The notes below the pieces were generated by a model, which was not told the origin of the DNA, did not search any database, and worked only from the letters and a program-made list of their open reading frames with translations. DNA of 63,867 nt, the filler included, from Collodictyon triciliatum (taxonomy: Eukaryota): NCBI GenBank assembly GCA_043381765.1. It is 37 parts of 37 records of this genome, joined end to end, with 100 filler letters (N's around TTAATTAATTAA, not from the genome) between each part and the next. Parts side by side here need not be neighbours in the genome. Positions count along the whole stretch, not along the records: positions 55,356 to 56,978 come from JBHJMP010010596.1; 36 more parts are not named here. The stretch is one strand, 5' to 3'. Position 1 is the first letter of the stretch. Every line of letters starts with the position of its first letter. Below, piece by piece: positions 55,356-56,978 of the stretch. The position numbers and the translations under genes are program-made.

Positions 55356-56978
55356 GTTAATATTTTTTATTAGTAATTTGATTGTAATTAATCCCTCTTT
55401 AATCAATAAATAAATAGATATCCACACTGCCAGCAAACATATCGAACTTGACGAATCTCACATGTCTCAGCATCAGCAACAACAAGGTACGAATACTTGA
55501 ATTAACAAAATATTTAAATGTACATCCCAGCCTATCATAAATGAAATTTTTCTGACAAATACTTACACACCAAAGTTCGACGAATCGCCTGCAGCCATCT
55601 GCACATTGACACTCGTCGCATCACTTGATATATCCACCAACCAAGTGATTAAACCCCCTTTTTTTTTAACGAGACATTCCTATACTTCATTAATGCATTC
55701 TATTAGTAATCTGATTGCAATTAAACCCTCTTTAATAAATAAATAGATATCCACACTGCCAGCAAACATATCGAACTTGACGAATCTCACAAACCTCAGC
55801 ATCAGCAACAACAAGGTACGAATACTTGAATTAACAAGAATATATATACATCCCAGCCTATCATAAATGAGAGTGTTCTGACAAATACTTGCACATCAAA
55901 GTTCGATGCATTGCCTGCAGCCATCTGCACATTGACGCTCGTCGCATCACTCGATATATCCACCAACCAAGTGATTAAATCCCCCTTTTTTTTTAAGAAA
56001 AAAAGAAGACATTCCTATAATTCATGAATATATTATACAAGTCATTTGATTGTAATTAAACCCTCTTTAATTAATTAATAAATAGATATCCACACTGCCA
56101 GCAAACATATCGAACTTGACGAATCTCACAAATCTCAGTATCAGCAGCAACAGGGTACAAAGACCTGAATAAAAAAAAAGCATATAAATATACATCCCAG
56201 TCTATCATAAATGAGAGCGTTCTGACAAATACTTGCACACCGAAGTTCGACGCATTACCTGCAGCCATCTGCGCATTTATACTCGTCGCATCACTTGATA
56301 TATCCACCAACCAGGTAATTAAATCTCTTTTTAACGAGACATTCCTACAATTCGGTAATCCATTCTATTAGTAATTTGATTGAAATTAAACCATCTTTAA
56401 TAAATAAATAAATAAATAAATAAATAAATATATAGATATCCACACTGCCAGCAAACATGTCGAACTTGACGAATCTCACAAATCTCAGCATCAGCAACAA
56501 CAAGGTACGAATACTTGAATTAACAAAATATTTAAATGTACATCCCAGCCTATCATAAATCAGAGTGTTCTGACAAATACTTGCACATCAAAGTTCGATG
56601 CATTGCCTGCAGCCATCTGCGCATTGACGCTCGTCGCATCACTCGATATATCCACCAACCAAGTGATTAAACCCCCTTTTTTTTTAACAAGACATTCCTA
56701 TACTTCATTAATACATTCTATTAGTAATCTGATTGTAATTAAAACCTCTTTAATCAATAAATAAATAGATATCCACACTGCCAGCAAACATATCGAACTT
56801 GACGAATCTCACATGTCTCAGCATCAGCAACAACAAGGTACGAGTACTTGAATTAACAAGAATATATAAACATTCATCTCAGCCTATCATAAATCAGAGT
56901 GTTCTGACAAATACTTGCACATCAAAGTTCGATGCATTGCCTGCAGCCGTCTGCACATTGACGCTCGTCGCATCACTC
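55356..56978. repeat. About 4.8 tandem units of 329-350 bp (exon A-intron-exon B-intron); the array runs off both contig ends
   Basis: Exon A starts are spaced 329, 339, 350 and 333 bp apart, and the introns are also highly similar between units. Confidence 0.97.
55418..56978 (+). CDS. LRR protein built from alternating 69-nt single-LRR exons. A: 55418-55486, 55747-55815, 56086-56154, 56436-56504, 56769-56837. B: 55576-55644, 55902-55970, 56246-56314, 56594-56662, 56928-(56978)
   Basis: A = ISTLPANISNLTNLT(C/N)LSISNNK; B = FDALPAAICTLTLVASLDISTNQ. Every complete exon is bounded by AG/GT in phase 0 and has no stop codon. Confidence 0.92.

Follow-up and report, generated by a model that had tools for sequence, protein, structure and literature searches.

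In brown algae, including Ectocarpus, each leucine-rich repeat (LRR) of the ROCO proteins is encoded by one 72-nt exon, and the exons undergo shuffling as well as alternative splicing (Zambounis et al. 2012, PMC3341825; Teng et al. 2024, PMC11378527). Tetrahymena carries thousands of LRR genes with arrays of exons of exactly 90 bp, the introns being in phase 2; the exon-plus-intron units of ~347 bp are recognizable at the DNA level and have been ascribed to recent clonal expansion and unequal crossing-over, with the 90-bp exons mostly under purifying selection (Xiong et al. 2019, PMC6564038). Repeat domains that undergo concerted evolution by unequal crossing-over are further known from FLO1, dumpy and the WD repeats of the fungal het-e and het-d genes (PMC5100051). 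We have analyzed a stretch of 63,867 nucleotides from Collodictyon triciliatum (assembly GCA_043381765.1; hereafter, the window) and describe the tandem array of LRR exons that makes up one of its 37 contigs (JBHJMP010010596.1, positions 55356-56978). This array is likely a fragment of a functional LRR gene in which unequal crossing-over multiplied a two-exon module in tandem and which is now under mild purifying selection, and its predicted product would be a protein-binding solenoid of at least 10 repeats.

Exon-intron structure and LRR register of the array

The array consists of five A exons and five B exons in strict alternation, which form units of ~340 bp. Tandem Repeats Finder reported a period of 348 over positions 55371-56978 (4.8 copies, 83% matches, 6% indels), and the three complete units measured 326, 344, and 348 bp. 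Nine exons are complete, each being exactly 69 nt long, and the tenth (exon B of unit 5) is cut to 51 nt by the contig end. The predicted splice borders presented AG at 10 of 10 acceptors and GT at 9 of 9 visible donors. The LRR frame opens at the first base of each exon and, hence, all introns are in phase 0; they span 86-91 nt from A to B and 102-121 nt from B to A. The exon sequence, 672 nt in total, contains no stop and no frameshift. On either strand, the longest stop-to-stop frame crossing the array does not exceed 97 aa, which explains why open reading frame (ORF) lists miss the array gene. In all these respects, the first-pass annotation of this DNA was borne out: it had described at least 10 exons (nine complete, 69 nt, phase 0, one 23-aa LRR each) that alternate as A and B in ~340-bp units and that the ORF track largely overlooks.

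All features of the array lie on the plus strand. The contig opens with the 3′ part of a B-to-A intron (55356..55417), which is cut by the contig start and ends in AAATAG. Unit 1 comprises exon A (55418..55486, 69 nt, phase 0, ISTLPANISNLTNLTCLSISNNK), an 89-nt A-to-B intron (55487..55575, GTACGA...AAAG) with a conserved CTGAC ~20 nt upstream of the acceptor, exon B (55576..55644, 69 nt, phase 0, FDESPAAICTLTLVASLDISTNQ), and a 102-nt B-to-A intron (55645..55746, GTGATT...ATAG). The 69-nt exons A (55747..55815) and B (55902..55970) of unit 2 are separated by 86 nt (55816..55901), and the B-to-A intron that follows (55971..56085, 115 nt) carries a 9-nt A-rich insertion unique to this unit. Unit 3 is the most diverged, with 19 singleton changes. 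Its exons A (56086..56154, 69 nt) and B (56246..56314, 69 nt) flank a 91-nt intron with the donor GTACAA (56155..56245), and its B-to-A intron (56315..56435, 121 nt) has the donor GTAATT and an (AATA)n expansion at 56399-56438. In unit 4, exon A (56436..56504, 69 nt), an 89-nt intron (56505..56593), and exon B (56594..56662, 69 nt) are followed by a 106-nt B-to-A intron (56663..56768). Unit 5 starts with an exon A of the same sequence as that of unit 1 (56769..56837, 69 nt) and continues with a 90-nt A-to-B intron (56838..56927) and the 51 nt of the truncated exon B (56928..56978). This last intron is a multiple of three without an in-frame stop, and its retention would keep the frame, yielding a 70-aa open read-through (56769-56978). 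Such openness is probably due to chance: the other four A-to-B introns are 86-91 nt long and none is a multiple of three.

Since the exons are symmetric (phase 0-0) and each holds one LRR period, skipping, swapping, or duplicating an exon keeps both the frame and the LRR register. The earlier statement that exons could be skipped or duplicated without a frameshift thus follows arithmetically from 69-nt phase-0 exons. There was no RNA run among the ten listed sequencing runs (which contained at most 0.07 of the sampled words), and the short contigs obtained from four metagenome runs had no joints informative on splicing.

The computed spliced product has 224 aa and corresponds to nine full 23-residue LRR periods plus two partial ones. 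All nine full periods fit the pattern LxxLxxLxLxxNxLxxLPxxI without exception, and P5, A6, L17, I19, S20, and N22 are invariant across eight aligned exons. The product aligned with the Pfam-confirmed LRR ORF of another contig of the window, contig 10 (38% over 68 aa, E 7e-12). A phmmer search was performed with the window-native 70-aa read-through as query, which runs from exon A of unit 5 through the in-frame 90-nt intron into 17 codons of exon B. It returned 434 proteins with E ≤1e-3, of which 24 were at ≤1e-10 and none at ≤1e-30 (best 1.4e-28), and identity in the best 50 rows was 41-55% over 23-28 residues. We have scanned 16 of the 17 best matches against Pfam (P0015 was omitted), and all were multi-LRR proteins. 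Eight of them carried Roc (most also COR), single ones carried NEL, nSTAND1, TPR, and pentapeptide repeats, and four had LRRs only, with these partner-domain counts being limited by a similarity that is at class level and biased toward many-repeat proteins. A second homologue search with the read-through, directed at longer proteins, gave 146 candidates, none with E ≤1e-3. The sole match of the 8-exon profile among PDB sequences was LRRD1, a weak one (E 8.5e-4). When the eight Roc-bearing proteins were compared with all 37 contigs by tblastn, only their LRR parts matched, on four contigs.

From its sequence pattern, the array belongs to the LxxLxxLxLxxNxLxxLPxxI class of LRRs, which is found in ROCO, SHOC2, and LRRD1-like intracellular proteins. 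Exon A contains three N-x-S/T sequons in units 1 and 5 and four in units 2-4, in agreement with the three to four given in the first-pass annotation, which had on this ground suggested an extracellular domain. The translations did not sustain the latter suggestion. The sequons coincide with the N-L-T/S part of the LRR consensus and, being part of it, are no evidence of secretion; moreover, the nearest LRRs come from the intracellular types ROCO, NEL, nSTAND, and LRRD1. An intracellular, ROCO-like context would be no less likely than an extracellular one.

The LP-containing LRR class is encoded by 4 of the 37 contigs (contigs 9, 10, 19, and 33, the latter being that of the array). The LRRs are otherwise contiguous on contigs 9, 10, and 19, and the use of one exon per LRR is special to contig 33 among the four. 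Contig 10 holds the gene of a small LRR protein (16874-15990, minus strand; Pfam LRR_8, E 1.4e-14), in which five contiguous 23-residue LRRs in one exon are followed by an 87-nt phase-0 intron (GTAATT...ATATAG, 16322-16236, minus strand). This intron sits at the same LRR position as those of the array, after LxLxxNx and before IxxLP. An LRR ORF that enters from the end of contig 9 (15320-15523, minus strand) is LRR-like up to ...LTLHSNP, where GTAATG (15319) provides a candidate donor at that same position. The intron position shared with contig 10, and with the candidate on contig 9, supported that the splice style of the array is that of the assembly to which it belongs.

Divergence between units and origin of the array

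The units were 86.5-91.8% identical to one another (blastn). Pairwise divergence amounted to 4.6% and 8.3% in exons A and B and to 11.3% and 13.1% in the A-to-B and B-to-A introns, respectively, in line with the first-pass view that the introns are almost as conserved as the exons. Exons A and B are identical at 37 of 69 nt (54%, z 3.9 against shuffles) and the two intron types are unrelated (z -0.14 against shuffles). Thus, A and B are old exon types, and what has been copied recently is the whole two-exon module with its introns. Intron conservation speaks for a recent duplication of entire units and not for a conversion confined to exons.

We have then compared exon and intron columns of the unit alignment. 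Gaps were present in 0 of 138 exon columns and 44 of 226 intron columns (Fisher p 1.6e-10), and variable columns numbered 18 of 138 and 49 of 226, respectively (p 0.050). The pooled synonymous divergence (pS, 0.115) was close to that of the introns (0.122), with a non-synonymous divergence (pN) of 0.051 and a pN/pS of 0.44. Changes at core positions were conservative (I/M, I/V, L/F), and, of the 11 amino-acid changes, only 3 affected variable positions (x) within the LxxLxLxxN strand. With pS near intron divergence, pN lower, and indels confined to introns, the coding sequence appears to be under mild purifying selection and not under diversifying selection, contrary to the "diversifying" label of the first-pass annotation. 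The counts are small and the substitution pattern suggests a consistent trend toward coding constraint.

The patchwork of shared variants described in the first-pass annotation was present in our alignment in all four quoted examples. Units 1 and 5 have TGT in exon A and the upstream AATCAATAAATAAATAG in common, AAAATATTTAAATGTAC is common to units 1 and 4, AATCAGAGT to units 4 and 5, and GCA in exon B to units 3 and 4. The full alignment contained 16 informative sites with seven different two-unit groupings, and 57 of 120 site pairs failed the four-gamete test. In the 263 ungapped columns common to the five units, there were 13 informative sites with six different two-unit groupings. The best tree explained seven of these sites and six conflicted with it, compared to 1.1-3.6 conflicts under simulated recurrent mutation; the probability of at least six conflicts was lowest, 0.0005, at kappa 2 with equal rates and highest, 0.14, at kappa 8 with gamma 0.3. 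A permutation of neighbor incompatibility akin to the pairwise homoplasy index, the type of recombination test that had been proposed for these units, did not reveal spatial clustering (observed 0.54, permuted mean 0.47, p 0.94). The units have identical tracts of ~75-100 nt in common. Similarity is highest between units 1 and 5 (91.8% over 256 nt, exon A being identical; offset 1,351 nt, 55418 vs. 56769). In this short overlap, the likeness might reflect a higher-order repeat of four units.

The mosaic probably exceeds chance, and its excess over recurrent mutation appeared only under some models. It could have originated from short-tract exchange between units or, equally, from a chimeric assembly path. 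Of the proposed mosaic by conversion, the shared variants and their excess under some models remain; the assignment to conversion is not supported, given the loss of that excess under strong rate heterogeneity, the lack of clustering, and a pattern indistinguishable from that of a chimera.

Matches to the units were found in all four metagenome runs examined, three of which are labeled as freshwater. Five short contigs (102-365 nt) were 90-100% identical to units and covered window positions 55672-56158 and 56725-56908. One of them, a 102-nt contig from a freshwater run, equals 55950-56051, at the junction of units 2 and 3, with zero mismatches, and another follows 55962-56158 with four mismatches. 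Further variant combinations were seen in these contigs, for example, a unit-5-like context with AAT in place of TGT. These matches show that the repeat is also present outside the C. triciliatum assembly, place the array organism, or one closely related to it, in such samples, and indicate that unit variants number more than five. Exact scans of the metagenome contigs with a 23-nt stretch of exon A and a 32-nt pattern of exon B gave zero matches each.

As for its setting, the array occupies a single complete contig of 1,623 bp, with 55356 and 56978 as its two ends and a linker on each side (55256..55355 toward the preceding contig, 56979..57078 toward the following one). The contigs of the window (1,622-1,639 bp each, in roughly descending length order) are all joined by identical 100-bp linkers composed of N44 + TTAATTAATTAA + N44. 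The linkers being artificial, any finding that depends on adjacency across them is void, and the neighbors of contig 33, of which the left one ends in (AAGA)n and the right one begins with (TTG)n, give no positional information. Contig 33 consists of the repeat alone, has its start and its end inside a unit, and contains neither start nor stop. It is a small unplaced piece of a fragmented eukaryotic assembly with unrelated neighbors, and the word "locus" in the first-pass annotation has to give way to that of an isolated contig. Microsatellites occupy eight contig ends within 50000-63867, namely (TAATAACTACAA)n, (AAAC)n, (ATTACT)n, (TAGA)n, (AGAA)n, (TTG)n, (AGAAG)n, and (TTTC)n, from which the assembly appears to break at repeats. 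Judging by the window, simple repeats are very abundant in the C. triciliatum genome.

Starting from what the contigs display directly, namely the anatomy, the LRR register, the common intron position, and the relative rates, we propose the following origin. Contig 33 would be an internal fragment of a gene whose LRR domain is coded by 69-nt phase-0 exons, one 23-residue period each. The old exon types A and B would together form a two-exon module of ~340 bp, and this module, introns included, would have multiplied in tandem in the fairly recent past, reaching five copies or more, most likely by unequal crossing-over between units. Afterwards, introns and synonymous sites would have drifted alike (~12%) and amino-acid-changing sites less than half as fast, with length changes tolerated only in introns, a pattern that, in small counts, speaks for exons kept as coding sequence. 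To judge from its family, the product may fold into a curved solenoid of at least ten LRRs and bind another protein. The units have probably exchanged some sequence, through gene conversion or unequal crossover, which need be only the concerted evolution that is ordinary for tandem repeats. The duplication mechanism, the expression, the function, and the partner domains are the elements of this proposal that we infer.

Several points weigh against the proposed gene fragment. All exon junctions were predicted from sequence alone. Of the 18 variable exon sites behind the pN/pS below 1, 7 are synonymous and 11 are not, and the ratio is not significant by itself; the exon/intron contrast in variable columns is borderline at p 0.050. 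The majority of intron indels fall within poly-T, poly-A, or (AATA)n runs, where slippage is easy, and this makes the indel-free exons weaker evidence than the p of 1.6e-10 implies. In the Pfam scan of the array, carried out with single 23-aa exons, exon A reached LRR_4 with E 0.008 and 16.9 bits against a cut-off of 27 and exon B had no match at E ≤1; low scores are to be expected for pieces of 23 residues. No near-identical protein was present in two large protein collections, and contig 33 has no domain other than LRR. Finally, the order of the units and their number may have arisen in assembly.

The latter point leads to an explanation that is compatible with the functional gene fragment and that we regard as possible, though on balance doubtful: that the unit is real and the contig is an unfaithful one, representing a collapsed or chimeric path through longer, paralogous, or allelic arrays. 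A 1.6-kb contig made solely of repeat that begins and ends within a unit is what such a path could leave behind, in an assembly that breaks at repeats, as the eight microsatellite ends show. Identical tracts of ~75-100 nt permit mis-joined reads, the conflicting sites are scattered and not in blocks, and the natural unit variants outnumber the five assembled. Yet metagenome contigs reproduce 55950-56051 without mismatch and 55962-56158 with four, which vouches for the local order only. It seems improbable to us, on the other hand, that the array is dead, that is, a former LRR exon pair turned into a non-coding tandem repeat or pseudogene. The near-exon level of intron conservation, the predicted status of the junctions, the lack of a matching database protein, and a pN/pS not significantly below 1 are compatible with decay, but decay would have to be reconciled with 672 nt of exon free of stops and frameshifts, with the absence of exon indels, and with 19 of 19 visible splice dinucleotides being intact. 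It would also have to accommodate core hydrophobic and Asn/Pro positions that are kept or conservatively changed in all copies, and a non-synonymous divergence less than half of the synonymous and intron divergence.

The first-pass annotation had favored a third explanation, in which unequal crossover, gene conversion, or alternative splicing of exchangeable LRR exons generates diversity in a receptor, possibly an extracellular and glycosylated one. We give this little chance. Symmetric exons of one LRR period do allow skipping, swapping, and duplication with frame and fold preserved, and the metagenome contigs carry further variant combinations; the pN/pS of 0.44 is nevertheless not above 1, and only 3 of 11 amino-acid changes concern the variable x positions of LxxLxLxxN. 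The six of 13 informative sites in conflict with the best tree are more than the 1.1-3.6 expected from recurrent mutation, but the excess is gone under strong rate heterogeneity (P 0.14) and shows no clustering (p 0.94). Likewise, Roc in 8 of the 16 scanned nearest LRR proteins brings the array close to the family of the brown-algal proposal (PMC3341825, PMC11378527), whereas no Dscam-like complementary intron elements were found, the sequons are within the LRR consensus, and the LRR class is that of intracellular proteins.

Other genes of the window

Besides its first intron, the contig 10 LRR gene has a second likely one further on (GTATTT...TCCAG). An internal Met of its frame begins MGNVPS, which resembles an N-myristoylation site. 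The protein was placed near the LRRC30/39/10/57 and SHOC2-like clusters (Atlas) and resembles small intracellular LRRC and SHOC2-like proteins; a homologue search with part of the ORF gave one weak match (33% identity). On contig 9, an A-rich low-complexity tract lies downstream of the candidate donor. Contig 19 contains an LRR ORF of 210 aa without introns (32033-32665, minus strand; LRR_8, E 4e-19); it is more G+C-rich, and its LRRs are of the same LP-containing class.

Among the remaining contigs, an open frame of 546 aa spans the whole of contig 3 (3477-5114, plus strand); it matched DUF5906 (E 7e-14) and, weakly, PriCT_2 and VapE-like domains. By these domains, it looks like a D5-type primase-helicase, as found in large DNA viruses or mobile elements. 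Contig 37 has an open frame of 517 aa without introns (62246-63798, minus strand) that matched bacterial Cadherin_4 (E 3e-13) and Big_9 (E 6e-12) and may represent a large adhesin, a bacterially derived gene, or a contaminant contig. Fragments of ordinary eukaryotic genes are present on other contigs. One of them has a GT64 glycosyltransferase domain (487-1083, E 3e-47). Reading by eye, we take 40835-41401 (minus strand) to be a TALE-type homeobox ending in ...WFINARR, and in 54245-54715 we recognize FGAGPHMCPG as a haem-binding segment like that of cytochrome P450. Nothing was found when the window was scanned for Rfam families and tRNAs.

Comparison with described repeat arrays

If real and expressed, the array gives one more lineage whose LRR domains are extended one exon at a time, and it supports the view that having one repeat per exon has evolved repeatedly and convergently as a way to change repeat number quickly. 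There is also a practical warning: having no exon of more than 23 codons, such genes are missed by ORF-based and many ab initio annotations, and short-read assemblies break or collapse them. In the article texts that we searched, exonized LRR arrays were described only from brown algae and Tetrahymena and no 69-nt LRR exon array was found. A more far-reaching view would make C. triciliatum the third independent lineage, after these two, with a ROCO-like intracellular sensor of one LRR per symmetric exon. In this view, the array would undergo active reshuffling, both from unit to unit and from individual to individual, through unequal crossover, short-tract conversion, or exon skipping, giving a binding repertoire at the level of the population or within a clone. 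We deem this view a long shot. A bearing on the diversification of innate-immune-like receptors in protists would arise only if variable copy number, isoforms, and a signaling domain were shown, and the array shows no sign of a diversity-making receptor.

Lamprey variable lymphocyte receptor (VLR) cassettes, to which the array had been likened, are non-spliced donor fragments that flank an incomplete germline gene, comprise LRRNT and LRRCT caps, and are copied somatically in a deaminase-linked, conversion-like process. Both systems have modular LRR pieces that are in principle recombinable. In the array, however, the modules take the form of regular exons, all on one strand and with AG/GT borders intact, and there are no cap modules on the contig; nothing in it points to somatic VLR-like assembly. 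Docking and selector sequences of the Dscam type were looked for in the array introns, and only four weak inverted pairs (12-19 nt, 74-92% complementary) in A/T-rich runs were detected. With FLO1, dumpy, and het-e/het-d the array shares highly similar tandem units in one gene, patchy sharing of variants, and probably a variable copy number, but their repeats lie within exons (PMC5100051), whereas here each repeat is an exon of its own and the introns are homogenized too.

The Tetrahymena arrays are likewise intragenic tandem units of exon plus intron, and of similar size (~347 bp there, ~340 bp here). At least three consecutive units conserved at the nucleotide level define them, and the present array has 4.8 copies with an intron identity of 87-89%. 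Most Tetrahymena exons are under purifying selection, as our small sample suggests for the array. The differences are that Tetrahymena uses 90-bp exons, phase-2 introns, and one exon type per unit, in contrast to two 69-nt phase-0 exons per unit, and that its arrays occur in thousands of genes (PMC6564038), while the present one is known from one contig.

The type I LRR exons of brown algae are tandem, symmetric exons of one fixed and equal length per LRR (PMC3341825), as in the array, and both systems allow in-frame gain, loss, or skipping, with local duplications inside one LRR domain (PMC3341825, PMC11378527). The first-pass comparison with Ectocarpus ROCO genes was an apt one, in that the LRR type of the array is nearest to that of ROCO proteins, with Roc in 8 of the 16 best matches scanned. 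The brown-algal exons have, however, 72 nt (24 aa) vs. 69 nt (23 aa), and their borders follow GxxPxxL...LxLxxNxLx, whereas the array exons are bounded after LxLxxNx (PMC3341825). Their introns are in phase 2 and not in phase 0 (PMC11378527), Roc-COR lies downstream of their LRRs while the array contig holds LRR units only (PMC3341825), and diversifying selection has been reported for them, against a pN/pS of 0.44 here (PMC3341825, PMC11378527). The array also differs in alternating two exon types strictly. Inactivated or reverse-strand LRR exons, which are signs of shuffling, were absent, with no LRR-like frame on the minus strand or inside the array introns. The array works like those of brown algae and Tetrahymena and stands outside both families by their defining numbers, its own being 69 nt, phase 0, and two alternating exon types.

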